NCBI GenBank assembly: GCA_965207885.1
Contig: OZ242311.1
Span: forward strand, 2,208,001-2,272,000
Source: Candidatus Latescibacterota bacterium
GTDB taxonomy: Bacteria > Latescibacterota > UBA2968
DNA length: 64,000 nt
Direction of reading: 5' to 3'
Below the pieces are notes generated by a model that was not told the origin of the DNA, did not search any database, and saw only the letters and a program-made list of their open reading frames with translations. Below are positions 16,935 through 40,388 of this stretch, one piece after another; within the stretch, counting starts at the first letter, position 1; each line of letters begins with the position of its first letter. The position numbers and the translations under genes were made by a program.

Positions 16935-18284
16935 CTAAGCGCATTCAGCGCTCATTTTGTCACATCGTCTTCTCAGTCGTTTGAGTTGATTTGAGAATCT
17001 GTGATCTCCCGCGAGATTGAAGGATTCGTGGGGATCTTTGCAAAGGTCGTAAAGTTCCTCATAGACGGGCTGTTGCTCGTAGTAGCGAATGTATTTCCAG
17101 TGTTTTGTGCGTATGCCTTCGCTCTTGGGGATGTCGGCGCGGTGGAACCGGTGTTCGCAGAAGAACGCTTTTCGCCAGTCAACTTTCTTTTTTTCCAATA
17201 ATGGAACAAGAGATTTGCCCTGCATTTTGTCCGAAACGTTCAGATTCGCCAGTTCGAGGATGGTTGGCGCAATATCGATGTTTAGTGCCAATTCTTCGCG
17301 AATGAGACCTCGATTGTTTTCATCAGCCCGTGGATCGAGGATAATAAGGGGTATGCGGATCGACTGTTCGTTCAACTGCCAGCAGTCGCTGAGTCCGCGA
17401 TCCCCGTAGTACATCCCGTGGTCGGATGCAAAGATCACGACTGTGTTGTCGGATAATGACAGTTGATCCATGGTCCCGAGAATCCTGCCTATGTTCCGAT
17501 CCACACCGCTCACCATTCGGTACAGCCCTCGCATGTTTCTCTGGTAGTCCTCAGATGTCGCATAGCGTTTTTGCCATCGTACGCGACTTTCTGTTTCGCG
17601 CAAAAATTTTGGCAACTGTCGGAAAAAGTCGGGATGGGCGTTGAATGGTTCCGGTATCTGCGTCTCTGTGTAGAGGTGATCTTCAGTAGCGGGCCAGATG
17701 TAGCAGCGCGGATCATTGTCCTGCGCGTGCGGCGCATTGAAACTGATGGAGAGACAAAATGGCTGGCCGGGATGATCTGATTGATGCGTGCGCAAGAAGT
17801 TGATCGTTTTGTCCCCGGTGATGTCGGTCAGGTGGCGCACACTGCCATCGGGCTGTCTGATTTCATACCCTTCTTCGGTCCAGTGTTCGTAGTTGTCAAA
17901 TACGTCAAACATCTTTCCTACTGCATCCTCGTCCTGCAGAGAAGGGACGATTCCGTTGGTGGCTATGCCGAATTTGCCGATTAGCCCCGTGCGATAACCC
18001 GCCATTTTGAGGGCCGATGGGTAGGAAATGTCGGTGTATGCGCTTTGGAGGGGGGGAGTGAGGAAGGTGAATCGGTGGCGTCTTTCATAGGTGCCCGTGA
18101 GATAACTGGCCCGGCTTGCGGCGCAGATTGGACTTGTGCAGAACGCGTTTTCGAACCGCACACCGCTTGCGGCGAGCCGATCGATGTTTGGGGTTTTGAT
18201 GATTGGATTGCCAGCGCAGCCGAGCAGATCATTGCGCTGGTTGTCGGTCAGGAAAAAGAGGATGTTCGGGGGAGGTGCTTTCAC
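16935..18284 (-). CDS. Sulfatase (G6S-like subfamily)
   Basis: PNILFFLTD, CAASRAS (CxAxR), FNAPHAQD, ASDHG. Confidence 0.92.
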   Translation of the reverse strand: MKAPPPNILFFLTDNQRNDLLGCAGNPIIKTPNIDRLAASGVRFENAFCTSPICAASRASYLTGTYERRHRFTFLTPPLQSAYTDISYPSALKMAGYRTGLIGKFGIATNGIVPSLQDEDAVGKMFDVFDNYEHWTEEGYEIRQPDGSVRHLTDITGDKTINFLRTHQSDHPGQPFCLSISFNAPHAQDNDPRCYIWPATEDHLYTETQIPEPFNAHPDFFRQLPKFLRETESRVRWQKRYATSEDYQRNMRGLYRMVSGVDRNIGRILGTMDQLSLSDNTVVIFASDHGMYYGDRGLSDCWQLNEQSIRIPLIILDPRADENNRGLIREELALNIDIAPTILELANLNVSDKMQGKSLVPLLEKKKVDWRKAFFCEHRFHRADIPKSEGIRTKHWKYIRYYEQQPVYEELYDLCKDPHESFNLAGDHRFSNQLKRLRRRCDKMSAECA

Positions 18285-28532: not shown

Positions 28533-29567
28533 ATGTCCTCTTTTAAAACGCCAGAAGACATCAAAGTGGGTGTTATAGGCTATGGCGGCGCATTCAATAT
28601 GGGCCGCCAGCATCTCACGTTTATGAAAAAGGCGGGTATGACGCCTGTTGCGGTTGCAGAACTCGACGAAACGCGCTTGAAAGTCGCGCGCGAAGAATTT
28701 CCCGGTATCGAGACCTATACATCTGTGTCTGATATGCTGGAAAAATCCGGTGTCAATCTCGTTGTGATCATCACCCCGCACAATACCCATGCCGATCTGG
28801 CATTGCAATGTCTGCGCGCGGGGCGCCACGTTATCAGCGAAAAGCCACTGGCGATTACGACTGAGGAATGCGATGCGATGATCCGCGAAGCCGAAAAGCA
28901 AAACCTCCTTCTTTCCACCTATCACAACCGCCATTGGGATGGGTGTATCCTGAAAGCTCTTGAACAAATTCACCAGCGCAAGGTTATTGGGGAGGTCTAT
29001 CGCATTGAAGCCCACATGGGAGGATACAATCGACCGGGCGACTGGTGGCGCAGTAGCAAGAGCATTTCTGGGGGGATCCTCTACGATTGGGGTGTTCACC
29101 TTCTCGAATATTCGCTCCAAATTCTGCAATCGGATATTGTGGAGGTTACCGGGTTCGCGCACACCGGTTTCTGGGCTGATGAGACCCGCTGGCAGGACGA
29201 TACCAATGAAGATGAGGCCACAGCTATTGTGCGTTTCAAAAACGGAACGTGGATCAATCTCACGATGTCGAGTATCGCATCTGCACCCCGCAAGGGCTGG
29301 CTCGAGATTACCGGTACGGCCGGTACTTATATTTTTGATGGTGGGACGTACGAAATTTTACAGATAAAAGATGGAGAAAAGATTGTCTCCTCTGGCAAAA
29401 ATCCCAGCCATCAATACGATAAATACTACGATAATATTGCCGCACATCTCTCGACGGGTGAAGACCTGATTATCACGCCCGAATGGTCTCGCCGCCCCAT
29501 TCACATCCTGGACCTTGCCTGTAAAAGCGCAGCGATGGGGCAGGCGCTCAAGGCGAAGTACGCATAG
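28533..29567 (+). CDS. Gfo/Idh/MocA oxidoreductase
   Basis: GVIGYGG, HVISEKP, HNRHWD, GGILYDWGVH. Confidence 0.92.
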   Translation: MSSFKTPEDIKVGVIGYGGAFNMGRQHLTFMKKAGMTPVAVAELDETRLKVAREEFPGIETYTSVSDMLEKSGVNLVVIITPHNTHADLALQCLRAGRHVISEKPLAITTEECDAMIREAEKQNLLLSTYHNRHWDGCILKALEQIHQRKVIGEVYRIEAHMGGYNRPGDWWRSSKSISGGILYDWGVHLLEYSLQILQSDIVEVTGFAHTGFWADETRWQDDTNEDEATAIVRFKNGTWINLTMSSIASAPRKGWLEITGTAGTYIFDGGTYEILQIKDGEKIVSSGKNPSHQYDKYYDNIAAHLSTGEDLIITPEWSRRPIHILDLACKSAAMGQALKAKYA

Positions 29568-29585
29568 GTGTTGGCAAATACACAG

Positions 29586-29625
29586 AAAAAGCGACCAATG
29601 TCTCTCGACAAAGGCCGCTTTTTTT
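29586..29625. terminator. Bidirectional-type terminator next to the transposon target site
   Basis: AAAAAGCGACC...GGCCGCTTTTTTT. Confidence 0.65.
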
Positions 29626-29636
29626 ATTTTAATTTT

Positions 29637-29701
29637 GGCAATTAGCTTTATAAAGCCTTCCTTGTAACTGATTTTCCCGTAATGTGTTACAAGAATATAT
29701 A
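29637..29701 (+). repeat. Left imperfect terminal inverted repeat
   Basis: Ungapped hand alignment with the reverse complement of 38474-38538: about 39/65 identical, 10 of the first 13. Confidence 0.7.
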
Positions 29702-29870
29702 CTGAAAGATAGTCAGAAACAAGCTTGATTGTTAGTTGGTTGTAGGCTTATCCACGTAAGCCTGAATTCGCTACCCGAAATTCAATCAAAATATAGCCAG
29801 GAATGGCTTTGGACTGGCAATGAAGAAGGGCACGCTCTTGTGGAACGTGCCCTCTCGACCAACCTGTATT

Positions 29871-29945
29871 TTACAGGTCGATCCGTATAGCTATGACGAT
29901 CTTCCAGACTCGGATAGCCATTGCGACAATGATTGTACGTCTCAT
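29871..29945 (-). CDS. 24-aa hydrophobic/basic peptide, candidate type I toxin
   Basis: MRRTIIVAMAIRVWKIVIAIRIDL*; SD AAGGAG; own promoter; SD-sequestering 5' UTR stem. Confidence 0.6.
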   Translation of the reverse strand: MRRTIIVAMAIRVWKIVIAIRIDL

Positions 29946-30034
29946 TGCCAGTTCTCCTTTTCTCCCTCGCGGGATTCGGAGTGATAAACAACAACTGGCT
30001 ATTATGTAATCTCAGAGCTATTATATCTGATTCA

Positions 30035-30063
30035 AATATACATAGGTTTGTGAGGCTTGACAA
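30035..30063 (-). promoter_or_regulatory. Sigma70-type promoter for the 24-aa peptide
   Basis: TTGTCA-17 nt-TATATT on the minus strand. Confidence 0.6.
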
Positions 30064-30080
30064 GCAATCAAAATAGGGCA

Positions 30081-30359
30081 TCATCTCCTTTCACGATGAT
30101 CTTTGCCCATCTTGTATGCTGTTGCTACTGATATTAACCACACGATAGTCCAGATTACATTGTCTTCGCCAAACACATCACATAACGCACCAAATATATC
30201 TAGATAAAACCAAAAGAACACGCTTATATGAGTCACAACATTCCATAGAATTTTCTTTGCTCTTTTCGACGGGTCTGAAGCAAAAACAAGTATTGCACTG
30301 AGAAAGAAAAGTGGCAGATTTATAGAAAACAATATGATAAGTATTTCACTCGTATCCAT
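30081..30359 (-). CDS. Small membrane protein (about 3 TM)
   Basis: Three hydrophobic segments; SD AAGGA. Confidence 0.65.
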   Translation of the reverse strand: MDTSEILIILFSINLPLFFLSAILVFASDPSKRAKKILWNVVTHISVFFWFYLDIFGALCDVFGEDNVIWTIVWLISVATAYKMGKDHRERR

Positions 30360-30408
30360 AAATAAAGTCCTTACTAAATACCCAAACGTTCTTCACAAGT
30401 CAATCGGT

Positions 30409-31218
30409 TTAATCGTTCCCCCATCCGTGATACGAAAGATGCTTATATACAACGTCTGCCCATACTTCAAAATGAGCCGCTTTCTGATACTGATATAAAT
30501 TGGGCGGTCTCGTATGTGGATGATAAGTGTTTAGCCAAATAATCTCCATCTCTCCAACCGTTATTAGATAAACATAGCACTCATCTACGCAGGTTTCAAG
30601 TCTCTCTGCTGATCCGTAGCAGTCCTGCTCGCCATTGTAAATTCCACTTTCAACGACTGCTTGTGCCATTCTACCTTGCGTTACAAGTATATCAGGAGAC
30701 AAGATTTCAATTTCTTTAGGTAGAAACTTCCTGCAATTATTAAACATCGTTATTGATGCCATTGCGTTTCCCTTGTTATTCTGACAGCACTTTGCACTGT
30801 TGGTATGTGCGAAGTAAGAACCAACTTTCTTGAATTGCAGGCTTGGTCGAAATCTCCTTAGAAGCATCCAAGCAAGTATATGTGTTTCTTGCCAATGATC
30901 GCCTTTTGGTAGCGATAACGGATCATCTCCTACAACTTCAATGTTGTCTATCACAGTTAATGCCCTTTTGTATGGGTCTTTGTCTGCTGACCCAGGATCG
31001 AGGGAGACAAATAAGACTCTCGGTAATTTATTCTTGATATAATCCGCTCCAATAGTTGGTTCAGTTGGTCCTACAAAGTCAGGATTCCCGCCTTTGCATT
31101 CTTTACAATGGACACAGTTGAACCTATTGGCAGATATACCTTTTGATTCATAATAAAATCTTAGTCTCCTAATCATTCTATCACAAAACCATTGTCTTAT
31201 TCTATCTACATTGTTCAT
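30409..31218 (-). CDS. Uracil-DNA glycosylase superfamily protein
   Basis: VLFVSLDPG, HTNSAKCC, NCRKFLPKEIEILSPDILVTQG, TYHP; N-terminal Cys cluster; start MNNVD after AGGAG. Confidence 0.7.
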   Translation of the reverse strand: MNNVDRIRQWFCDRMIRRLRFYYESKGISANRFNCVHCKECKGGNPDFVGPTEPTIGADYIKNKLPRVLFVSLDPGSADKDPYKRALTVIDNIEVVGDDPLSLPKGDHWQETHILAWMLLRRFRPSLQFKKVGSYFAHTNSAKCCQNNKGNAMASITMFNNCRKFLPKEIEILSPDILVTQGRMAQAVVESGIYNGEQDCYGSAERLETCVDECYVYLITVGEMEIIWLNTYHPHTRPPNLYQYQKAAHFEVWADVVYKHLSYHGWGND

Positions 31219-31228
31219 CTTGATGCTC

Positions 31229-31756
31229 CTATCTGTGAAGTTTCCAAACATAGTCAGTCGAGAATGTCCAACCAAACGATTGAGGATTGCTTGACAACCT
31301 GTAATAATTCCAGAGTATCCTTGCCGCTTCATCAGTGACAGTATTCAAATGTTGCTTGAACAAATACGTCCTCGTCTCATTAGAAGGAATTGTATCCGTA
31401 ATAGCAACATTAAAAGACTTCAATCCTCGACTGCTAAAAGTTGCTGGTTCATCCATTTCTACACTCAATCTGGCAAGGATAAGTCTCAACGGTTCCCTAC
31501 CCGTTTTGACTACACAACGAATTAGAAGGAATTGCAAATTGTTTCTGTCCAATCCACCAGCGGTAACGTAACCGTGTATAAGCGCGTTAGGGCGGTCTTT
31601 CTCATATACCCGAAAAGCGTCACGGGATATAACTGTATCGCGCTTAGACGCCTTAACTTGCGCCCCTTCAGCGTATAGCACGTTGTTGTGTCGGACTTGA
31701 GCAAAGGCATTGCTCGACAACAATAGCAACAAGCCTGACAATGCTAAAACTTTCAT
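31229..31756 (-). CDS. Secreted hypothetical protein
   Basis: Signal peptide MKVLALSGLLLLLSSNAFA; SD GAGGAG. Confidence 0.7.
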   Translation of the reverse strand: MKVLALSGLLLLLSSNAFAQVRHNNVLYAEGAQVKASKRDTVISRDAFRVYEKDRPNALIHGYVTAGGLDRNNLQFLLIRCVVKTGREPLRLILARLSVEMDEPATFSSRGLKSFNVAITDTIPSNETRTYLFKQHLNTVTDEAARILWNYYRLSSNPQSFGWTFSTDYVWKLHR

Positions 31757-31760
31757 TTAA

Positions 31761-32297
31761 TTACTCCTCTATGAAGTGTATCCCTTCTAACGACCAAGTA
31801 CCAGTATCCGTATTGTGATCGAATGCAACACTTACGTCTATATCCATTTCGGCACCTACTCCGATTTCAACATAGGTAATAGGGTATCTAATGAGGACTC
31901 GACATATAAACGCATTGCCTTTCCTTGAAACTGCTGTTGTTCTACTGCTCCCACTCCAAGCAGGCCAGTAGCTCGGAAAGTCTGTTAATCGACGATTTAT
32001 ACCTGCTAAACGTCTATAAACAACAGGTCTTGACATTTTCATAAGTTTATCAAGTTCACTATTCGAGAATTCTCGGTTGACAAGATCGACCCTTATTTTC
32101 TCGATTGAATCACGTCTCGCATCTCCTGTCGGTCTAAATTCTACCTTGTTGTCGTCACGACCATTCCAACACATCGAATATACTGCACATCCTAAGACGA
32201 AGAGGATGATACTCTTACCGAAACATCCGATTCCTTCAGATTCGGTTTCAGTCGTATTTTCATTCTTGTTCTCAGTATTCTCAGATTGATTGCTCAT
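31761..32297 (-). CDS. Hypothetical single-TM membrane protein
   Basis: Start MSNQS after AAGGAG; one hydrophobic segment. Confidence 0.65.
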   Translation of the reverse strand: MSNQSENTENKNENTTETESEGIGCFGKSIILFVLGCAVYSMCWNGRDDNKVEFRPTGDARRDSIEKIRVDLVNREFSNSELDKLMKMSRPVVYRRLAGINRRLTDFPSYWPAWSGSSRTTAVSRKGNAFICRVLIRYPITYVEIGVGAEMDIDVSVAFDHNTDTGTWSLEGIHFIEE

Positions 32298-32406
32298 TGG
32301 ATTACTCCTTAAAATGCTTGACTTGATTGATTCCATTGCATATCGTAACGAACAAGGACGGTATTCCAATTTCTCGGAACACCGTCCCTGCGACTTAGTT
32401 CGTTCC

Positions 32407-32970
32407 TTAGCTCATTGAGAATTCATACAATGGTATGAGCTTATCAAACTCGCTAAGAATGTTCTGGACGCCTAACGGATTAGCTGGCTCTTTATTCAGA
32501 TTGAAGAATGATATAAAGTTGCCATCCTCGATCCATTCGTCATTGATGATAGGATCGCCAGCTTTGACGATTATATCTTGCCTCGGTTTAGTCAATCCTA
32601 AGCGGTAGTTCTCAAATCCGCTACTGAACCGTTCAACGAATTGATTAAACCTTACGATCCTCGGTCGCATTCGACCCAATATGCTACGACCTCGCACAGT
32701 ATCGAGAGAGAATGCAAGACCGTACTCGATATAGTTACCGTCTCTCTGGTCGAGAAATTGAACGTTAAACTGGCATTCGTCACGTCCGCCCCAATGATAG
32801 GCGTAATCCTTCTCCTGATTTTCGTGACGATCAAATTGAAAGATTCCAGAACCAGCTTGACAGCCTAAGCCTCTCAAATGTTTTCGAGTGCGTTGGAGTT
32901 GGGCTATTCGATAGCCATACCAAGCATCGTGATCGAGGGCTTCCGCAACTTCAGAAATATGATTGTACAA
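32407..32970 (-). CDS. Hypothetical protein (HWGGR..QFN...YGLAFSL domain)
   Basis: Globular ORF; TTG start after AAGGA; the motif recalls N-terminal domains of nuclease-fused proteins (unverified). Confidence 0.6.
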   Translation of the reverse strand: MYNHISEVAEALDHDAWYGYRIAQLQRTRKHLRGLGCQAGSGIFQFDRHENQEKDYAYHWGGRDECQFNVQFLDQRDGNYIEYGLAFSLDTVRGRSILGRMRPRIVRFNQFVERFSSGFENYRLGLTKPRQDIIVKAGDPIINDEWIEDGNFISFFNLNKEPANPLGVQNILSEFDKLIPLYEFSMS

Positions 32971-33290
32971 GGTAAATTCCTTTCTTTCGTTCCCAACGTT
33001 TGAAAGGTTACGATACGGAGTGATCAGCACAATCGCTCCGTATCATTTATAAATAGAAAACGCATTTCTATAACTGGTTGTTTCTATGCCACTTACGCCA
33101 AAAATCAAGGTGTCGGGCATTTGTCAACGACCACAGTATAGTAATGCGGATGTCCTGCTTATTCGCCAGTCAAGGGAGCTACCCTCAACTTGTCTCCATT
33201 GGCTATTTTATTTAGCAGATACCCGACAAGACGGGTACTGTGCATCGTTGACGCTATAAATATACTCTATTACTTATTAGGTCACTGGAG

Positions 33291-34142
33291 TTACCCCGTT
33301 TTAGTGGATAGTGTAGAACTTTCAACCCCGTCACCTTTTGCCATCAGTTTTTCATAGGTGATGGGCGATTGGTACCTGATCGCAGAGTGTCTGCGGTGTG
33401 GGTTATACCACCCTTCAATATACTCGAAGATAGACAGTTTGGCCTGATTATGATTGGGGAAGCTATGCCGGTCTATCAACTCGCATTCAAGGGTAGCAAA
33501 GAAGCTTTCACACAAGGCATTGTCAAAGCAATCGCCAACCGATCCGACAGAGGGTTTGACCCCCATTCTTGCACAGCGTTGACCAAAGGCATAAGAGGTA
33601 TATTGAGCGCCTTGATCTGAATGATGGATGACCCCATCTGGTCGTCGGTTCCAAAGTGCCATATCCAAGGCATCTAAGACCAGTTGGGTCTTCAGATGCG
33701 AGGCCATTGCCCAACCAACTACGCGTCTGGAGAAGGCGTCGAGAACAACAGAGAGATACAAAAAGCCAGACCAGGTTTTTATGTAGGTAATATCAGCGAC
33801 CCACAGCTTGTTGGGCTTATCAACCCTAAAGTCTCGCTTAACCAGATCAGGGGCTTTCTCGTCTGTGATAGACCGGTATGTAGTCAGGATACCTTTTCTT
33901 CGGCTCACACCACATATATTGGCTTGTCGCATCAGTCTTGCGACCCGTTTCTTGCTGATGTGGACACCTACTTCGCGCAGATCCTGAAAGATACGCGGTG
34001 CGCCATAGGTTCCATTAGAACGCTGATGAAAGGTGCTTATTTGTTCTGTTAACTTTTCATCGTCCTTTGCCCGTTTAGATAAAGGTCTATTACACCAGGC
34101 ATAATACCCACTGGTGGAGACACCCAGCACGCGGCATAGCAT
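33291..34142 (-). CDS. IS3 transposase OrfB (integrase core; expressed by -1 frameshift)
   Basis: WVADITY, HHSDQG, CFDNALCESFF, YNPHRRHS. Confidence 0.93.
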   Translation of the reverse strand: MLCRVLGVSTSGYYAWCNRPLSKRAKDDEKLTEQISTFHQRSNGTYGAPRIFQDLREVGVHISKKRVARLMRQANICGVSRRKGILTTYRSITDEKAPDLVKRDFRVDKPNKLWVADITYIKTWSGFLYLSVVLDAFSRRVVGWAMASHLKTQLVLDALDMALWNRRPDGVIHHSDQGAQYTSYAFGQRCARMGVKPSVGSVGDCFDNALCESFFATLECELIDRHSFPNHNQAKLSIFEYIEGWYNPHRRHSAIRYQSPITYEKLMAKGDGVESSTLSTKTG

Positions 34143-34171
34143 GGTGATCGGATGGATGGCCTGATGCGCCT

Positions 34172-34483
34172 TTATGTATCTGAAGATTTTGGGGGTATCG
34201 CATCGGTCTCCGCTGCGAACCAGGCCGCGGCTTTTGCAAGGATCTCACGCTCTTGACGCAAGCGTTTATTTTCTTTGCGAAGCCGCTGAAGTTCTTCTCG
34301 CTCACGACTGGTCAACCCATCGTCCCGACGGCCTTCATCGCGGTCTGCTTGACGCACCCAGGCACTGATCGTCTGAGCGGTCGGCTCAAACTCTTTGGCC
34401 AAATCGCTGGCACTACGGCCTGATCTGACCAGCGCGACCATTTGCTGGCGAAATGCTGATGGATATGATCTTTTTCTTCCCAT
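34172..34483 (-). CDS. IS3 transposase OrfA
   Basis: HTH plus leucine zipper (ELQRLRKENKRLRQEREILAKAAAWFA); slippery C-CCA-AAA near the 3' end leads into OrfB frame KIFRYIKAHQAIHPITMLC. Confidence 0.92.
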   Translation of the reverse strand: MGRKRSYPSAFRQQMVALVRSGRSASDLAKEFEPTAQTISAWVRQADRDEGRRDDGLTSREREELQRLRKENKRLRQEREILAKAAAWFAAETDAIPPKSSDT

Positions 34484-34593
34484 TGCGGACTCCTTTCTCT
34501 GAAAGAGATAAGTTGTCCACTAAAACGGGTCAAGTCCACACAACATCTTTTCCTCCTTTGCTCTAATTCAACTTAACAATTCCTTGTAACGGG

Positions 34594-35511
34594 CTAATCC
34601 TTTTCCTGTTGTTCTCGCTCATATCCCCAATTCGGCATCAACTCATAAGCAGTCAAACTATGACACAAGAAATTGTAAAAGACTCTATCTCTGTTGTAAA
34701 ATCTGTGATTGTATTTGTAACAGTATTCAGCCAGATAGTACGGAGCGTTGTCCTCGCTATAATGATGATGAGTTCCTTTCAGAGCTTTCTTCATAAGTCT
34801 CCAAAATCCCTCAATCGTGTTAGTGTGAATACCGTTTGTAAATCCCTTATCTTTTCTCGTCATTATCCTATGATTGACAATTTCATTGACTCTACTATAA
34901 GATTTGAAATTATCAGTGATAAGAGTTGACCCTTTAGGATTGATTGATTCCTCTATGAAACGTCTAATCGTCCGACCTGAAACATCGCTGACAATCCGCG
35001 TAGCAACCCGACCTTCTCTTTCAACAATGCCAAGTAGCTTGAGTTTGTTAGCTCCTCGACCTTGTTTAGTTTCCTTGCCTATCTTAATATCAAGATACGT
35101 TTCGTCAGCTTCGAGTATGCCAGACAACTTTTTAAATTCCAGAGACCAGTATTCCTCTTTAAGAAATTCCTGCCGTATTCTCATCTGGATGCTATACGCT
35201 GCCCTCTGTGTTATTCCAAGATGCTCTGCCATTTCGTTACTTGACAAACTGCTCCTCGATATTAACATTTGACGTATAGCCTCGAACCACAATTCTAAAG
35301 GATAACCTGTCCCTGCAAACAACGTTCCAGAAAGAACATTGAAACTACTCCCGCAATTATAGCAATTCCAACGTCCTATGAGATTGTTCTCCCGTTTTCG
35401 AGAAACGTTGAAATGACCGCAATGAGGACAGTATTCTACTTCTTTATAGCGAATGTCCTCAAGATACTTGATATAGTCGGCTTGTTCGTTAAGACCTTTA
35501 ATTCGTTTCAT
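34594..35511 (-). CDS. IS1595-family DDE transposase
   Basis: Zn ribbon CPHC...CYNC, HTH, EADETY, TDNFKSY, HTNTIEGFWRLMK, YLAEYCYKYNHR. Confidence 0.92.
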   Translation of the reverse strand: MKRIKGLNEQADYIKYLEDIRYKEVEYCPHCGHFNVSRKRENNLIGRWNCYNCGSSFNVLSGTLFAGTGYPLELWFEAIRQMLISRSSLSSNEMAEHLGITQRAAYSIQMRIRQEFLKEEYWSLEFKKLSGILEADETYLDIKIGKETKQGRGANKLKLLGIVEREGRVATRIVSDVSGRTIRRFIEESINPKGSTLITDNFKSYSRVNEIVNHRIMTRKDKGFTNGIHTNTIEGFWRLMKKALKGTHHHYSEDNAPYYLAEYCYKYNHRFYNRDRVFYNFLCHSLTAYELMPNWGYEREQQEKD

Positions 35512-35751
35512 TGCGCTAAACCTTTCAGATAGTGGAATGGATTAAAGCCAGGTTGGGAGGCGAGTGCCGTCGCCTCCCTTCCGTTTCCAGTTCCGTTTCA
35601 ATAGGGTAAGCCCACAAAAGGGCAAAATTCAGTTAGAATTTGCAAACTTAATTAACAAAATACTAATTTATTCGTCATATATCCCTAATCCGTATTATTC
35701 TATAAGCAGTAACAATTATCATTTTAGCGACCTTTAAGGAGGTGATTGTCT

Positions 35752-35895
35752 GTGTCAGATAGTAAACGTCCAACACCAGCCGAGCAAGAAATTGAAAAGA
35801 AACTCAATCCAGATTCTCAGAAATCTGAAGAACGTTCCGAGATTAGCGAAGCTAAGAAATTGATCGACAAGGAGATCGAATCAGATAAAAAGTAG
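35752..35895 (+). CDS. 47-aa highly charged small protein
   Basis: Perfect SD TAAGGAGGTGA; MSDSKRPTPAEQEIEKKLNPDSQKSEERSEISEAKKLIDKEIESDKK*. Confidence 0.6.
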   Translation: MSDSKRPTPAEQEIEKKLNPDSQKSEERSEISEAKKLIDKEIESDKK

Positions 35896-35897
35896 AA

Positions 35898-35939
35898 AAG
35901 GACAAGGTCATATAACACGTAGGTTTTGACCTTGTCCTT
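35898..35939. terminator. Strong hairpin after the 47-aa ORF
   Basis: AAGGACAAGGTCA...TGACCTTGTCCTT (13-bp stem). Confidence 0.55.
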
Positions 35940-35983
35940 GATAAATTTAGACACTTTGAACACTTTGGCAAGGATAAATTGAC

Positions 35984-36190
35984 GTGGATAAACCAGTATA
36001 TAAATTCTTTACCGTTACCCCTTTTGACCAAAAGCGTCCTGAAGATGTATTAAATGAGTATTACGAGGAAGGGTATAGAGTTGATACGATGACCACAAAT
36101 CGTCACGTATATCCAGAGGGCACTGATCTTGCAACTCATCCTATCGTATTTCACTATCACATAGTTATGAAGCTCAAAGATTCAGACTAA
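35984..36190 (+). CDS. Small hypothetical protein (DUF4177-like)
   Basis: YKF...EDVLNEYYEEGYRV pattern; SD AAGGA. Confidence 0.55.
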   Translation: MDKPVYKFFTVTPFDQKRPEDVLNEYYEEGYRVDTMTTNRHVYPEGTDLATHPIVFHYHIVMKLKDSD

Positions 36191-36197
36191 TAAAACG

Positions 36198-36485
36198 TCA
36201 TAGCTGATCTTCCTGTTTTGGCTGATACCTCTTGATGATATGATGCTCGATGTGATCCAGTTCTATCTCTACACCTTCACTGTCTTGGTTCTGTGTCTTT
36301 TCAGTCGCTCGTCGTGCGCTCATTGCCAATGCAACACACCAGCCGATGAGTGTCCAGCCCAATAAGAAGTTTATCCAGAAGATACCAACGACGTTATGAC
36401 ATCCACGAACCAGTGCGATGATGAAGGGCACAAAGTAGATTGCCAAAGTGGCAAGGCTGACCCATACATCTAATTCACCTTCCAT
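36198..36485 (-). CDS. Superinfection immunity protein (T4 Imm-like)
   Basis: IYFVPFIIA..R..HN...IFWINFLLGWTLIGWCVAL signature. Confidence 0.88.
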   Translation of the reverse strand: MEGELDVWVSLATLAIYFVPFIIALVRGCHNVVGIFWINFLLGWTLIGWCVALAMSARRATEKTQNQDSEGVEIELDHIEHHIIKRYQPKQEDQL

Positions 36486-36495
36486 CGCAAACCTC

Positions 36496-36690
36496 TTATT
36501 TGGAGTCGTTTAGCCATCCACGTTTTCTATCTGCAATACACGCGGCAAGCGATATGATTAAAATAATTTGATCTTTCGTAAAATCTGAATCCATCAATTT
36601 TTGTTTGAAAGAGTGCGATCCTATGTGAACACTTGGAGAACCGAATGTCTCAAGAATTTTTACAATTTCTTCAACTTGTTCTCGATTCAT
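36496..36690 (-). CDS. Small hypothetical protein (paralog A)
   Basis: SD AAGG; shares L.DS.F.K.Q....I..A..IA with 36794-37000. Confidence 0.6.
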   Translation of the reverse strand: MNREQVEEIVKILETFGSPSVHIGSHSFKQKLMDSDFTKDQIILIISLAACIADRKRGWLNDSK

Positions 36691-36793
36691 TTTAATTCGC
36701 CTTTCTCCGTTGAGTAGGTTAGTTGTTTTGATCTGGTTTTCTTATGCCAATTATATCTGAAACTACGTGCCGTGTCAATGCCCTTTTATTAGT

Positions 36794-37000
36794 TCAGCGA
36801 TTCCCGTTCCCATATTCTTTGTTAAGTAAAACAAGAGACCGTGCGATGTGTTCAGCTATCACAATAACTCCCATTGCCTGTTCCTTGCTAAATTTGGAAT
36901 CCTCCAGAAACTCTCTGATTTCCCATATATACTGAGGTGGGATATTTGTAAATTTTTCCTCGACAAATCCTGTCACGTAATCAAGTTCTTGTTTTGTCAT
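36794..37000 (-). CDS. Small hypothetical protein (paralog B)
   Basis: SD AAGGAGGT; paralog of 36496-36690. Confidence 0.65.
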   Translation of the reverse strand: MTKQELDYVTGFVEEKFTNIPPQYIWEIREFLEDSKFSKEQAMGVIVIAEHIARSLVLLNKEYGNGNR

Positions 37001-37178
37001 TACCTACCTCCTTCTTGTAGCGTTTCCATCTTCGCTTTTTATCCCACTTTGCAAATGCTTCGAGTCTCTCATCTTCAGTCTCATCTGGTAGAACGAGACA
37101 ACCCAAAGACCAACAAATAATCAATAACATCATTACGCAAAAGATAAAGCCCATAAGATACAGCCAGAATGTAAACAT
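36981..37178 (-). CDS. Small single-TM protein with basic C-terminus
   Basis: SD GAGGAG; hydrophobic N-terminus. Confidence 0.55.
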   Translation of the reverse strand: MFTFWLYLMGFIFCVMMLLIICWSLGCLVLPDETEDERLEAFAKWDKKRRWKRYKKEVGNDKTRT

Positions 37179-37372
37179 CTACAACAATCTCCTCTTTAAT
37201 AAGACGGTCGATATAAGTTTATTAACCATTTGTATCACTTAAACTTATATACTCGGTAGTTGCAGTCAATTATTTCTAATTGCAGGCTTGCGCCTTCGTG
37301 CAAGCGAGGTTGTTTAGTCACGGAGGCATATAATGGCTGAGGACAAATGTAGGGCTTGGATTGCTGATTGTG

Positions 37373-37564
37373 TTACTGTCCGATCTTCTCAAGTAGAGAT
37401 TCCGCAAGAGATCGTGCTTGATTATCGTCAAGCGGCAAGAAAAAACCATCTTCTGGAAAAGAACGAGGCTTATTTATACTGGCCGAAGAAACGTGAATAA
37501 AGATATTTCCAGATTCATCATCTACAACATTTATTGTTACTTTAAATCGTTGATACTCTTTCAT
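37373..37564 (-). CDS. Small hypothetical protein
   Basis: Start MKEYQ after AAAGGA; overlaps an antisense ORF at 37333-37500. Confidence 0.45.
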   Translation of the reverse strand: MKEYQRFKVTINVVDDESGNIFIHVSSASINKPRSFPEDGFFLPLDDNQARSLAESLLEKIGQ

Positions 37565-37708
37565 TCTAAATCCTTTCTTTGAACAACCTCGCATCGCAAT
37601 ATATCCCTCCAATTATCGTTGTCAATAAATTTGTTCTTGACATTCTCCGTTATCTCCTATAAACTCGAAATTCACATTAATTTCAACTAATTTATAGGAG
37701 AATAACTT

Positions 37709-38380
37709 TTGAATAAAACAATCCTTGCAGAGTTTAATAGATTGGAGAAACAAGCTAAAGAGGTCATTGCTTCTAAATATACATATAGAAGTCCTCATAG
37801 TAGTCGGGAAGGAACGGATCACGTTAATTATACTCTGTTTAATTTGTTTACATCGTCTCTCTTATCTTTTATAGACAAGTTCTACGGATCAACTCACATA
37901 TACTACTCTGAAGTTAAAGCAAGGTCGTCTGATTCTTACTCGAATGCAGAGATAAATGTCGGCATTCTTAAAACTATTAGAGAAGAATTTGAGTCAGGAT
38001 TCTTTACGTTAGACCTCAGAAGTTTAATCGCTGAGGAGATATTTTCAGATTACTTAGAAATGTCGGAGCATCTACTTAAGAAGGGTTACAAAGATGCCGC
38101 TGCTGTGATAATCGGCAGTTCCTTAGAAAGTCATCTACGTCAGCTATGTGTTGCTAACGAAATGTCTCTGACAGATGATAGAGATAGAATCAAGACTGCT
38201 GGCAGACTCAATGATGAATTACATAGAAACGAAGTTTATGGTGGACTTTATCATAAGCAGTTATTGGGCTGGTTAGAGATACGCAACAATGCCGCTCACG
38301 GTCATTATGACAAGTATAATAGAGATCAAGTCTCACTGATGTTGCAAGGCGTCACCAACTTTATTTCCAGTAACCAGTAA
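37709..38380 (+). CDS. HEPN/DUF4145-like protein
   Basis: AAAVIIGSSLESHLR helix and RNNAAH (Rx4H) motif; SD AGGAG. Confidence 0.8.
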   Translation: MNKTILAEFNRLEKQAKEVIASKYTYRSPHSSREGTDHVNYTLFNLFTSSLLSFIDKFYGSTHIYYSEVKARSSDSYSNAEINVGILKTIREEFESGFFTLDLRSLIAEEIFSDYLEMSEHLLKKGYKDAAAVIIGSSLESHLRQLCVANEMSLTDDRDRIKTAGRLNDELHRNEVYGGLYHKQLLGWLEIRNNAAHGHYDKYNRDQVSLMLQGVTNFISSNQ

Positions 38381-38473
38381 ATTCCCTCCAAATTCAGTTT
38401 TTCACTCAAAAGCCTCACAAGTCTATCCCTACCGATTACAGGCTTTCTAAGCCTGTCACTGGATAACCTAAAA

Positions 38474-38538
38474 TCTATGTTCTTACAATCTATTGCTACA
38501 CAATGGATTAGAAAGAAAGCCCCTCAAGGCTTATTTCC
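38474..38538 (-). repeat. Right imperfect terminal inverted repeat
   Basis: Reverse complement GGAAATAAGCCTTGAGGGGCTTTCTTTCTAATCCATT aligns without gaps to the left end. Confidence 0.7.
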
Positions 38539-38547
38539 TTAATTTTT

Positions 38548-39270
38548 TTAAATACCAATCCGCTTTGGAAAGACAGTTACCCCCCAATTCACATACTGGT
38601 CTCGCTCCTCAGGCGTCTCGGCGCTCATGCCCACTCTCACTTGTGTGTCTTTTACCTGATCGAGTACGTGTTTTACGCAGTCTTCCACCGTCCGATATGG
38701 AAATTGGGGATGCGCCTCAATGCTGAACATCAGATCGTTTGGTCCAAAGTTCAATACATCTACTCCTGGTTTAGCTAACTGTGCAGCATTGATTACTGCT
38801 TCAACAGATTCAATCTGAATTGCCAACCACCCATACGTATTCCACCAGGGAGCGTATTCCAACCGATCTGGCCGCTCGTCCAGTCCCACCCTATGTATGC
38901 CACCCCAACTGCGTTTTCCCATCTGGGGATAATAAAAGGCGTTTACGGCTTCATCTACAATTGCCTCGCTTTCTACTTCAGGTACCATAATCCCCGAAGG
39001 TCCCAAATCGAGATAATTGCCGATCAGATAGGCGTGGAGGGTGTGCTTAATCCGAATCTGAACGGGCAAATTCAATTCCCGGGCCATTATGCAGAAAGCC
39101 ACCAGGTGGGCTTCGTTAAAAGGCCCGTGTTGTGCATCTACATTTAGATAGTCACATTCGTGTTGTGCCAGAATATCAGTTAGTTCTCCCTTTTCAATAT
39201 CCATTGGCACGCCAATAGAATTTATTATTTCACCATTCCGAATCCGCTGTTTTAGAGTTTTTTGCGACAT
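38548..39270 (-). CDS. HpcH/HpaI aldolase family protein
   Basis: VDAQHGP, LDLGPSGIMVP, IQIES, FGPNDL. Confidence 0.88.
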   Translation of the reverse strand: MSQKTLKQRIRNGEIINSIGVPMDIEKGELTDILAQHECDYLNVDAQHGPFNEAHLVAFCIMARELNLPVQIRIKHTLHAYLIGNYLDLGPSGIMVPEVESEAIVDEAVNAFYYPQMGKRSWGGIHRVGLDERPDRLEYAPWWNTYGWLAIQIESVEAVINAAQLAKPGVDVLNFGPNDLMFSIEAHPQFPYRTVEDCVKHVLDQVKDTQVRVGMSAETPEERDQYVNWGVTVFPKRIGI

Positions 39271-39284
39271 TATACACCTCTTGT

Positions 39285-40388
39285 TCAGTCCAGACTGTAG
39301 AGTTCCCGGGCATTTTCTGCCATAATTTGTTTTTTGACTTCTCGATCCGATACATTGCTCAGTGCCTGGTCGGGCGAATCAAAATCCCAGTGCGGATAAT
39401 CGGTTGCAAACATCAGTTTGTCGTCCATGTCCATGTGCGCCAGCATCTGCTCGAAATACGCCGGGTCTGAAGGCTCTTCTACCGGCTGTGTGGTCAGATA
39501 GAAATGATCCCGGATATATTCCGAGGGCAAGCGCTTTAAATAGGGCACTTCCATCTTGAGTTTTCGGTACCAGTTATCCATCCGCCACATCAAAGGTGCC
39601 ACCCACCCAAAGCCGCCTTCGATCAGAACGATTTTTAAGTCGGGAAATCGTTCGAATACGCCTTCGTACACATAGCTCGTTACCTGCGCCTGAAATGCCA
39701 TGGGCATCCCGCCGTGATCCTGAATATAATGCGCGGCCTTGCCCGCGCCCGTAATTGGGCCAATACCCGTGCCGCCAAAGTGAATGCCGATGGGGAGGTC
39801 GTAGTCAACGGCTGCTTCGTAAATTTTCCAGTATTTACGGCGGCCCAGTGGCTCCATTGTGCGGGCCATGAACATCAATTGTACAAATCCCGGGTGATCG
39901 CCCAGGCGTTCAATTTCAGCGACGGCGAGATCGGCGTCTTCATACGCGACAGTCAGGGATGCACGCAATCGCTCATCTTTTTCCAGCCATTCGGCTATTT
40001 GCCATTCATTTACCGCCTGTGCAATTGCCGCTCCGTATTCCAGGTTTTGCTGTCCCCCAGCAGGCGATAGCGGGTTCAATATGCCGTAGTCCATTTCCCA
40101 AGTATCCAGCAATTGTTCCTGCATAAAACCCAGATGTGATCCCGGTGGTCCTTCGGGGGGAAACGCATCATTTCGTGCGGCAAAGGGCACGGCTCTCGGA
40201 CAATTGGACCCGGATCGTCTGCGCCCTGCAATGCTCAGATGGTAATCTTTCCAAGCGCTGGGCATATAATCTACCCAGACCTCAGTGGCGGGAGATTGAT
40301 AGCCATCTACATTGTGAATATCGCAATCGATTACCGATAGCTTTTCTCTCTTTTTGACCTCTGGCTCTTCTAAAATAGTCATCGCCAT
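39285..40388 (-). CDS. Amidohydrolase_2 family protein
   Basis: IDCDIH, GIHFGG, LIEGG, FATDYPHWDFD. Confidence 0.92.
   Translation of the reverse strand: MAMTILEEPEVKKREKLSVIDCDIHNVDGYQSPATEVWVDYMPSAWKDYHLSIAGRRRSGSNCPRAVPFAARNDAFPPEGPPGSHLGFMQEQLLDTWEMDYGILNPLSPAGGQQNLEYGAAIAQAVNEWQIAEWLEKDERLRASLTVAYEDADLAVAEIERLGDHPGFVQLMFMARTMEPLGRRKYWKIYEAAVDYDLPIGIHFGGTGIGPITGAGKAAHYIQDHGGMPMAFQAQVTSYVYEGVFERFPDLKIVLIEGGFGWVAPLMWRMDNWYRKLKMEVPYLKRLPSEYIRDHFYLTTQPVEEPSDPAYFEQMLAHMDMDDKLMFATDYPHWDFDSPDQALSNVSDREVKKQIMAENARELYSLD

Follow-up and report, generated by a model that had tools for sequence, protein, structure and literature searches.

An AT-rich island of 8.9 kb overall interrupts a 64,000-nucleotide stretch of DNA from Candidatus Latescibacterota bacterium (contig OZ242311.1, positions 2,208,001 to 2,272,000 of the forward strand; the whole stretch is called the window below, and coordinates refer to it unless another contig or locus is named). 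The question raised by this locus is whether the island arrived as one mobile unit, and what the genes inside it are for. An initial annotation, made from the letters alone, had proposed one cargo-laden IS1595-family transposon of about 7.6 kb, discounting a nested IS3. This proposal holds up well: the interval 29637-38538 is very probably a single IS1595-family transporter IS (tIS), an insertion sequence (IS) with cargo, which measures 7.65 kb without the IS3 and encloses within one pair of terminal inverted repeats (IRs) 14 non-transposase open reading frames (ORFs) and one RNA. The features that define the unit are the following.

29629-29636, no strand: left target-site duplication, TTAATTTT (sequence; empty-site contigs of public runs X7 and X10)
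29637-29726, plus strand: left terminal IR, transposase-distal, starting GGCAATTAGC, with two palindromes (end alignment; fold z = -2.8)
33286-34538, minus strand: nested IS3-family IS of 1253 bp, with orfA at 34172-34483 and orfB at 33291-34142 (39-nucleotide IRs; NF033516)
34594-35511, minus strand: IS1595-family DDE transposase of 305 residues with an N-terminal zinc ribbon (PF12762, PF12760, NF033547)
38449-38538, minus strand: right terminal IR, on the upstream side of the transposase, starting GGAAATAAGC (end alignment)
38539-38546, no strand: right target-site duplication, TTAATTTT (sequence; empty-site contigs)

Boundaries and empty site

The identical 8-bp flanks seen in the initial annotation are present as described, TTAATTTT occupying both edges of the island (29629-29636 and 38539-38546). 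Read inward, the ends start with GGCAATTAGC from 29637 and with GGAAATAAGC, the reverse complement of 38529-38538. The ungapped end-to-end alignment, which had been put at about 39 identities over about 65 bp by hand, contains exactly 39 identities in 65 columns and 54 in 90, with no further gain by 100 columns (54/100). As a null, the left end was slid as a 90-mer over 17,624 positions on both strands of the island: the mean was 23.8 identities with a standard deviation of 4.2, and the true right end was the best non-self match, the runner-up reaching 45. The similarity of the ends thus stands about 7 standard deviations above the null. Two hairpins are foldable in each of three copies of the end (29645-29693, 38482-38537, and a third copy treated below, at 17149-17205 of locus L046), with a DNA fold z of about -3, and the first palindrome of the right end is a terminator-like hairpin on both strands. 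GC content is about 0.50 in the flanks against 0.32-0.45 within the island, the IS3 excepted.

The insertion point has on its left the terminator of a GFO/IDH/MocA oxidoreductase gene (28533-29567, plus strand) and on its right a convergent gene for an HpcH/HpaI aldolase (38548-39270, minus strand), the right duplication ending one base short of the stop codon of the latter; the coordinates agree with the position first annotated. In a left-flank search of 41 related genomes, from which 11 congeneric loci were fetched (L005-L015), nine of the 11 lack the island, and the terminator and the aldolase stop codon are there at most 70 nucleotides apart. The spacer of these congeners differs from that of the window because they are other species, at about 90% identity. 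The remaining two are L009 (genome G008), which has about 0.9 kb of other DNA at the corresponding intergenic site, and L012 (genome G015), where the right flank is absent from the fetched 1.5 kb. As both hold other insertions at or near the site, a permissive spot is suggested, and the intergenic region between oxidoreductase and aldolase may be a recurrent landing place.

The empty site that had been predicted, with a single TTAATTTT between the two flanking genes, exists: 29628 is joined to 38539, with eight shared letters, in one contig of public run X7 (depth 71) and in one of X10 (depth 6.6). This joint is the decisive evidence that the element was inserted as a unit. The evidence from public runs consists of contigs, not reads. 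Runs X1-X4, which cover the stretch in full, possibly derive from the source sample and do not therefore count as independent; from run X5, in which parts of the stretch are without cover, no conclusion was drawn. In X7 the flanks have a depth of 300-580 against 4-8 for island-like contigs (about 94% identical), so that the locus is mostly empty there.

These data also bear on whether the island is a transposon at all. It could have been built by an integrase, by homologous recombination or by accretion around a short IS1595 element, the 8-mers and the similarity of the ends then being chance in T-rich DNA. A T-rich site does make short repeats likelier, and the other insertions at or next to the site in L009 and L012 point to a permissive spot; such an origin is nevertheless highly improbable, given an empty site that is exact and shares eight letters, ends that match better than at any of the 17,624 positions and carry the terminal motif of the family, and a third copy of the end that starts at the same base. 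Indeed, as first annotated, the island has no integrase or recombinase among its 16 ORFs (18 proteins scanned), the sole rve domain being that of the nested IS3, and ARAGORN found no tRNA in the island. Short IS with a homologous transposase and, close to it, IRs of their own had been named as a sign against the single-transposon reading; they were encountered among distant homologues only (40-45% identity), and even these are mostly elements of 1.6-2.8 kb with cargo. Beside the transposase of the window no IR of this distant kind rises above chance, with a search matrix that is blind to the element's own ends too.

The transposase and its family

The IS1595-type transposase that had been noted in the middle of the island (34594-35511) matches Pfam PF12762 with 97.8 bits (8.3e-28; cut-off 27), the zinc-ribbon family PF12760 with 26.4 bits (cut-off 25.4) and the NCBIfam IS1595 model NF033547 with 143.4 bits (cut-off 75). 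An alignment of 11 transposase homologues shows no variation at C28, C31, C50, C53, D136, D200 and K241 and almost none at E234; judged by this alignment, the protein would possess the catalytic set of the IS1595 family, D, D, E and then K, which goes by the name DDEK. A DDE domain, a CxxC...CxxC zinc ribbon, terminal IRs and an 8-bp AT-rich duplication, the marks of the IS1595 family, are thus found together in the element. It also has what sets a tIS apart, namely passengers within one IR pair served by one transposase, in a unit that moves as a whole, as the outer duplication and the empty site indicate. Two further IS1595-type transposase genes occur in the source genome (G000; 6.23 Mb in one contig), 40% and 29% identical to that of the window. 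Among 72,556 plasmid records no match exceeds 33% identity, and the best one bears the annotation IS1595 family transposase.

In the mechanism we propose, the transposase, by its zinc ribbon and DDE domain, would bind two ends starting [C/G]G[C/G]AAT[T/A]AG with sub-terminal palindromes, and would insert the whole 7.65-kb unit into the AT-rich TTAATTTT site with duplication of 8 bp. The 1253-bp IS3 landed later, between the transposase gene and the cargo. An RNA, called R1, would control the cargo row of the left arm.

Related elements in other genomes

A search with the single transposase as query returned no related locus, and an alignment of 11 homologues was required. Matches to the transposase at E<=1e-30 were found in 25 of 168 sampled genomes of the phylum. 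The closest relative, in genome G020, has a transposase 67% identical to that of the window in a 5726-bp element with 28-nucleotide IRs (96%) starting GGCAATTAGC. This element contains homologues of the passengers ORF207 (53%; ORF187 in G020) and ORF175 (39%), in the same order as in the window, as well as a nested IS3/IS481-type gene of its own, and on the left it borders on a different IS, which has 18 matches in the G020 genome. Its IR lies 420 nucleotides upstream of the transposase gene, and homology with the window spans the transposase start, a small ORF and a hairpin up to that IR. The relative in G013 (transposase 45% identical by BLASTP) measures 4320 bp; its duplication is exact (8/8) and its IRs agree at 19/20. 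It carries the R1 RNA, a gene for a UDG-fold protein (29%) and an ORF175 homologue (49%). One ORF (77%) is shared by the G013 and G020 elements and absent from the window. Since the three elements share differing subsets of genes, the cargo is modular and shuffled between sister elements.

When one genome per species was scanned with the 11-transposase alignment, 574 relatives were recovered, of which the best 80 loci were examined. A script that required an exact 8-bp duplication and an IR of at least 16/20 delimited elements in 36 of these 80 loci (1408-7964 bp), the other 44 including copies without a perfect duplication. Thirty of the 36 are 1408-2809 bp long and the others 3665, 3901, 4320, 4701, 7096 and 7964 bp, the largest with two IS1595 transposase genes and an IS3 gene and hence probably compound. 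The 36 duplications comprise 34 distinct 8-mers with a mean A+T of 83%, the loci themselves having 46%. The IRs open with CGGAATAAG, CGCAATTAG, CGCAATAAG or GGCAATCAT, a pattern [C/G]G[C/G]AAT shared with the ends of the window element, whose first nine bases agree with the terminal motif of the 36. According to the genome records the clade extends over Latescibacterota, Poribacteria, Chloroflexota, Alphaproteobacteria (Rhodobacteraceae/Amylibacter), Acidobacteriota and other metagenome-assembled genomes.

The bounded elements hold 80 cargo ORFs, 55 of which were scanned against Pfam; those left out are mostly ORFs below 100 residues and near-duplicates. Nine of the 55 are N6/N4 DNA methylases, four of the nine with an Mrr-type nuclease domain and two with an inactive-REase-type domain (one overlapping); the other scanned cargo includes a metallopeptidase-like protein and DUF6575, the majority being without a family. 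A DNA methylase is the main cargo in the distant relatives L177, L140, L163, L117, L155, L124, L153, L174 and L158 (Chloroflexota, Alphaproteobacteria, Latescibacterota and others), and several of these have it fused to a domain of the Mrr type or the inactive-REase type. The search for copies with other 8-bp duplications and variable cargo, recommended in the initial annotation, was thus rewarded by the 36 elements with their 34 duplications and by the shuffled cargo of G020 and G013. The suggestion that the element may be of an undescribed sort is not supported as it was put: passenger-carrying tIS are a described category, and 36 relatives of 1.4-8.0 kb were found. Nearly every member of the clade carries cargo, and the window element ranks among the largest of them rather than being of another kind.

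History of the element and its present mobility

Several observations weigh against the reading as a single tIS. The ends are just 60% alike over 90 nucleotides and the element is single-copy in its genome, so that present-day mobility is unproven. Beyond the first nine or so bases the ends share nothing with those of the distant-relative clade, and a position matrix of these relatives' IRs fails to rank the window's own ends among the best matches in the window. The G020 element is without a clean duplication (TTAGAAAA against TAAAAAAT, 5/8). Moreover, the transposase gene starts 3027 nucleotides from the nearer end, compared with 88-134 nucleotides in 29 of the 36 related elements, for which reason the right arm is probably a later accretion.

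One explanation for this last peculiarity is an origin in two steps. An ancestral element would have extended from 29637 to about 36000, the IR on the transposase side lying about 0.4 kb before the start of the gene, as it does in G020. The 2.5-kb right arm with the IR at 38538 would have come later, for example when a cassette devoid of a transposase was fused to the element or a surrogate end was put to use, and the outer ends would have served in the most recent transposition. The position of the G020 IR, up to which homology with the window extends, and the short distances in the 29 relatives agree with this course of events, and a solo end of the same type elsewhere in the genome means that spare ends are available. 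On the other side, the window aligns weakly with the G020 IR at 35.9-36.1 kb, no vestigial IR being demonstrated there, and no internal IR above chance was found with the distant-relative matrix (top score in the island 5.3, at 37284), which missed the element's own ends too. We regard two steps as quite possible, somewhat short of an even chance; they would change the history of the element and not the identity of the present unit, whose duplication lies at the outer ends.

The solo end is a third copy of the 65-nucleotide end, at 4102136-4102204 of contig C1 of the source genome (17136-17205 of L046). It is 49/63 identical to the left end (nhmmer E 4.7e-16), starts at the first base of the latter, and forms the edge of a 36.4-kb strain-specific insertion (4065813-4102204) that is absent from four congeners and abuts tRNA-Leu(taa). 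No partner for it was found, hence its designation as a solo end; a 34/65 match at 4099633 of the same contig, considered as partner, lies inside an ORF and was judged to be chance. A nucleotidyltransferase/HEPN pair and an HNH nuclease gene stand beside this end. A second copy of the window's element or of its cargo was not found in the genome.

The nested IS3 matches NF033516 with 334 bits and is present in the genome in ten identical copies of 1253 bp; it is therefore active now or was until very recently. It sits in non-coding DNA between the transposase gene and the cargo. Its later arrival follows from the colinearity of the related G020 element across the site and from a contig of run X7 that joins 33282 to 34539 with three shared letters, the IS3-less form. 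In a low-depth X7 contig about 94% identical to the element, 83 nucleotides at the junction of ORF175 and the UDG-fold gene (31182-31266) are swapped for 474 other letters. Since X7 holds both this junction variant and the IS3-less form, a variant of the element circulates in another sample.

The element may alternatively be a fossil, inserted by transposition and by now immobile, with diverged ends, transcription interrupted by the IS3 and a single copy left. Its solitary state, the 60% identity of its ends and the separation of the transposase gene from the cargo by the IS3 all speak for such a state. Yet the transposase ORF is intact and has kept every conserved residue of catalysis and zinc binding, the two copies of the duplication agree in 8/8 letters, the IS3 has hit non-coding DNA, and the IS3-less contigs of run X7 come from a sample in which the locus is mostly empty. 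Immobility therefore seems to us a real but minority possibility, and a tIS inserted as one unit is the reading retained here.

Cargo of the left arm

The left arm is one minus-strand gene row that begins with the RNA R1 and continues through ORF207, ORF202, ORF175 and a UDG-fold protein to two small ORFs. From R1 onwards its features are:

33069-33250, minus strand: RNA leader R1, five helices over 181 model positions (model R1 scores 132 bits)
32407-33030, minus strand: ORF207, probably 187 residues from a start at 32970, first gene behind the RNA leader, DUF1054/YktB-like fold (homologues; VIA-align)
31761-32369, minus strand: ORF202 (ORF list)
31229-31756, minus strand: ORF175, with a signal-peptide-like N-terminus, the passenger common to all three related elements (homologues in G020 and G013)
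30409-31218, minus strand: UDG-superfamily protein of 269 residues, nearest to the iron-sulfur family-4/UdgX type (PF03167, 26 bits; cut-off 24.3)
30081-30359, minus strand: ORF of 92 residues, hydrophobic, probably a membrane protein (translation; no family match)
29782-30084, minus strand: ORF of 100 residues, final gene of the row, uncertain whether real (ORF list; no family match)

The UDG-fold protein has 47 homologues, the majority with PF03167; its AF2 model (pLDDT 91) gives the family-4 UDG 4zbx as the top Foldseek match (E 4.9e-7), with UdgX also among the best, and a profile search against the PDB likewise returns 4zbx (3.8e-7). ORF207 has just 11 homologues among 5.8 billion proteins, each 178-235 residues long. 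For its AF2 model (pLDDT 73.6) Foldseek found no match in the PDB at E<=1e-3, and the best structures by VIA-align are 2a8e (Z 9.2) and 3mqz (Z 8.7), DUF1054-type proteins of unknown function, a result that agrees with an atlas lead (TIGR02453-like at 0.94). ORF175 gave no Pfam family and no atlas match of at least 0.9, ORF202 no match in Pfam, PADLOC, PHROGs or NCBIfam, and the two small ORFs none in Pfam, PADLOC or PHROGs. NCBIfam was also without a match for ORF175 and ORF207 and for the HEPN and Imm proteins of the right arm.

A structured RNA at the head of the cargo row

The RNA was recognised as a block of about 180 nucleotides downstream of the transposase gene that retains 74-84% DNA identity across elements whose transposases are 40-67% identical. 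Eight copies yield a five-helix consensus with compensatory changes in 12 of 31 pairs. Across 36 copies, in an alignment fitted to the model and so favouring the structure, the fraction of paired cells is 93.6%, compared with 30-42% once the partners are slid, and double changes occur in 14 of 31 pairs; not one of 500 shuffles came up to these figures. R1 has no match in Rfam at E<=1, whether in 29000-39500 of the window or in five loci with other copies.

The source genome has nine copies of R1. Besides that of the window they lie on C1 at 4766349-4766530, 356005-356185, 2467666-2467847 and 667282-667457, and at 304994, 631106, 2368385 and 2611327. Seven of the nine are within IS1595- or IS1-type cargo elements, these being the window's element, a 2339-bp element, a 4940-bp element and four identical 2768-bp elements. 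The 2339-bp element (354793-357131; duplication GATGATTC, IR 15/20) is of IS1595 type and carries an Imm_superinfect-like gene besides its R1 copy, and the 4940-bp element (665788-670727; duplication GACAGTTA, IR 29/30), also of IS1595 type, has one R1 copy. The 2768-bp element (one copy at 304523-307290 of C1, locus L049) has IRs of about 26 nucleotides, R1, a 210-residue secreted-looking ORF and an IS1-like transposase that scores 74.6 bits with NF033558, under the NCBIfam cut-off; it is a cargo-carrying IS of a second family that uses the R1 leader.

In the phylum, R1 is found in 61 of 151 sampled genomes, each of which has between 1 and 13 copies; within the genus of the source genome the share is 18 of 19. 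By coordinates it adjoins IS1595-type transposase genes in G083, G030, G098, G101 and G097. It was not found, with filters off, in three Poribacteria loci and one Latescibacterota locus, where the single match of 8.9 bits is not real. The genes on the same strand downstream of R1 encode the ORF207 family, UDG-fold, Imm-like and WD40 proteins, a secreted repeat protein family, a CPBP protease and an SNase-like nuclease, among which no common metabolic or functional theme was recognised. In several copies a following hairpin, with a U-run after it, overlaps the 3' strand of closing helix 1.

Like riboswitches and other cis-regulatory leaders, R1 is about 180 nucleotides long, stands immediately before ORFs of the same strand, and has a closing helix that encloses a junction of several helices, with unpaired stretches that are strongly conserved; the hairpin and U-run seen in several copies might form an expression platform in competition with helix 1. 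R1 differs from that class in having no Rfam match, no metabolic theme in the downstream genes and no known ligand. We read R1, from its fold and position, as a putative cis-acting leader, a ready-made control region for captured cargo; a leader bound by a protein, or a gene for a small RNA, would be just as possible. A bolder proposal would make R1 an uncatalogued riboswitch-like leader and a portable "expression head" for the cargo of this lineage's IS1595- and IS1-type transposons, the window element being a mobile, signal-controlled platform whose UDG-fold, HEPN and Imm cargo serves phage defence and spreads between co-resident bacteria of different phyla. In this full form we consider the proposal rather improbable.

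Cargo of the right arm and the question of phage defence

The right arm consists of two small plus-strand ORFs, the Imm protein, four small ORFs and the HEPN protein:

35746-35895, plus strand: small ORF of 49 residues, divergent from the transposase gene and followed by a hairpin (partly conserved, with its ribosome-binding site, in the G020 element)
35984-36190, plus strand: ORF of 68 residues (ORF list; no Pfam match)
36198-36485, minus strand: superinfection-immunity-domain (Imm_superinfect) membrane protein of 95 residues (PF14373, 57.9 bits; phrog_1039, 6.5e-20)
36496-36690, minus strand: ORF of 64 residues behind a consensus-perfect promoter-like site at 36778-36750 (ORF list)
36794-37000, minus strand: ORF of 68 residues (ORF list)
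36981-37178, minus strand: ORF of 65 residues with a hydrophobic N-terminus (ORF list)
37373-37612, minus strand: ORF of 79 residues, start uncertain (ORF list)
37709-38380, plus strand: HEPN-family protein of 223 residues with an R-x4-H motif (homologues; motif in the translation)

The initial annotation saw a phage or defence character in these passengers, and this can be upheld for a part of them. Homology to defence-related families is present in three of the 14 passenger ORFs, namely the Imm_superinfect protein, the UDG-fold protein and, via its homologues, the HEPN protein. A domain 37.5% identical to that of the Imm protein is encoded by the sister element of 2.3 kb elsewhere in the source genome. 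The HEPN protein has 232 homologues, with PF18735 (RiboL-PSP HEPN) on 24 of 120 among the matches listed; it has itself no direct Pfam match at E<=0.01. Family searches gave no assignable function for the other 11 ORFs. What speaks against a defence function is that PADLOC 2.0.0 (2023, without later systems) had no match for 13 of the 14 cargo ORFs and thus offered no convincing defence model, the two matches of the HEPN ORF (E 1.8e-3 and 3.6e-3) being to unrelated models. In PHROGs only the Imm protein was matched among the cargo ORFs.

A defence role is nevertheless plausible for the UDG-fold gene by analogy, because the UDG-family proteins Brig1 and Brig2 are, according to the available part of a recent report, anti-phage enzymes often encoded near mobile-element genes, 41% of Brig2-like genes lying within 20 kb of such genes or near known defence systems (10.1101/2025.10.29.685425). 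In both cases a diverged protein of the UDG fold is encoded by mobile DNA rich in A+T; a difference is that the closest solved structures to the window's protein are a family-4 UDG and UdgX. The UDG-fold, HEPN and Imm proteins might, then, protect the host or the element itself from phages; that the cargo as a whole serves phage defence we consider doubtful. In the literature, as far as its text was accessible, no account of defence cargo in IS1595 elements was found, the nearest being a review of Acinetobacter mobile elements that, in the part available, mentions IS1595 and defence systems once each.

Comparison with known systems

Passenger-carrying IS1595 elements are known from the groups ISNwi1+, ISPna2+ and ISNha5 of ISfinder, and the passenger-carrying groups were reportedly first described by Siguier, Gagnevin and Chandler in 2009. 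The size of the window element is presumably within the range of ISNha5-type members, and its terminal motif GGnAAT[T/A]A resembles what we take to be the motif of the ISNwi1 group. Like IS1595 tIS, the element has one zinc-ribbon DDE transposase, one IR pair, an 8-bp AT-rich duplication and passengers inside the IRs. It differs from them in a transposase at most 33% identical to any IS1595 transposase in the plasmid records, in ends that are similar over 65-90 nucleotides with two palindromes, and in cargo that stands on both sides of the transposase gene and is led by an RNA. As regards the category itself, a 2021 preprint, in the portion available, describes tIS as confined to the IS1595 and IS66 families, and two papers cite, in their accessible text, Siguier, Gagnevin and Chandler 2009 for the concept.

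A second comparison is offered by the Tn7-like transposons with defence cargo (Benler et al. 2021, mBio). To judge from the accessible text of that study, these too bear variable cargo including defence-type genes, with sets that differ between relatives; unlike the single DDE transposase of the window element, they possess TnsABC and a targeting module. The window element is without attachment-site targeting and much smaller, and its defence role is a predicted one.

The window element is a further IS1595 tIS, of a kind already known, which deserves its defence label only in part. As this kind of element has been known since 2009, it is by itself a well-documented example. It gains value, first, from a transposase clade that is far from any in plasmids of cultured organisms (at most 33% identity). 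Second, together with its relatives it constitutes a natural example of the shuffling of cargo between sister elements. The third addition is the RNA R1, uncatalogued, widespread in the phylum (61/151 genomes) and, in the source genome, concentrated in IS-type cargo elements, which makes this most interesting by-product of the analysis a concrete and testable candidate for a new class of regulatory RNA.

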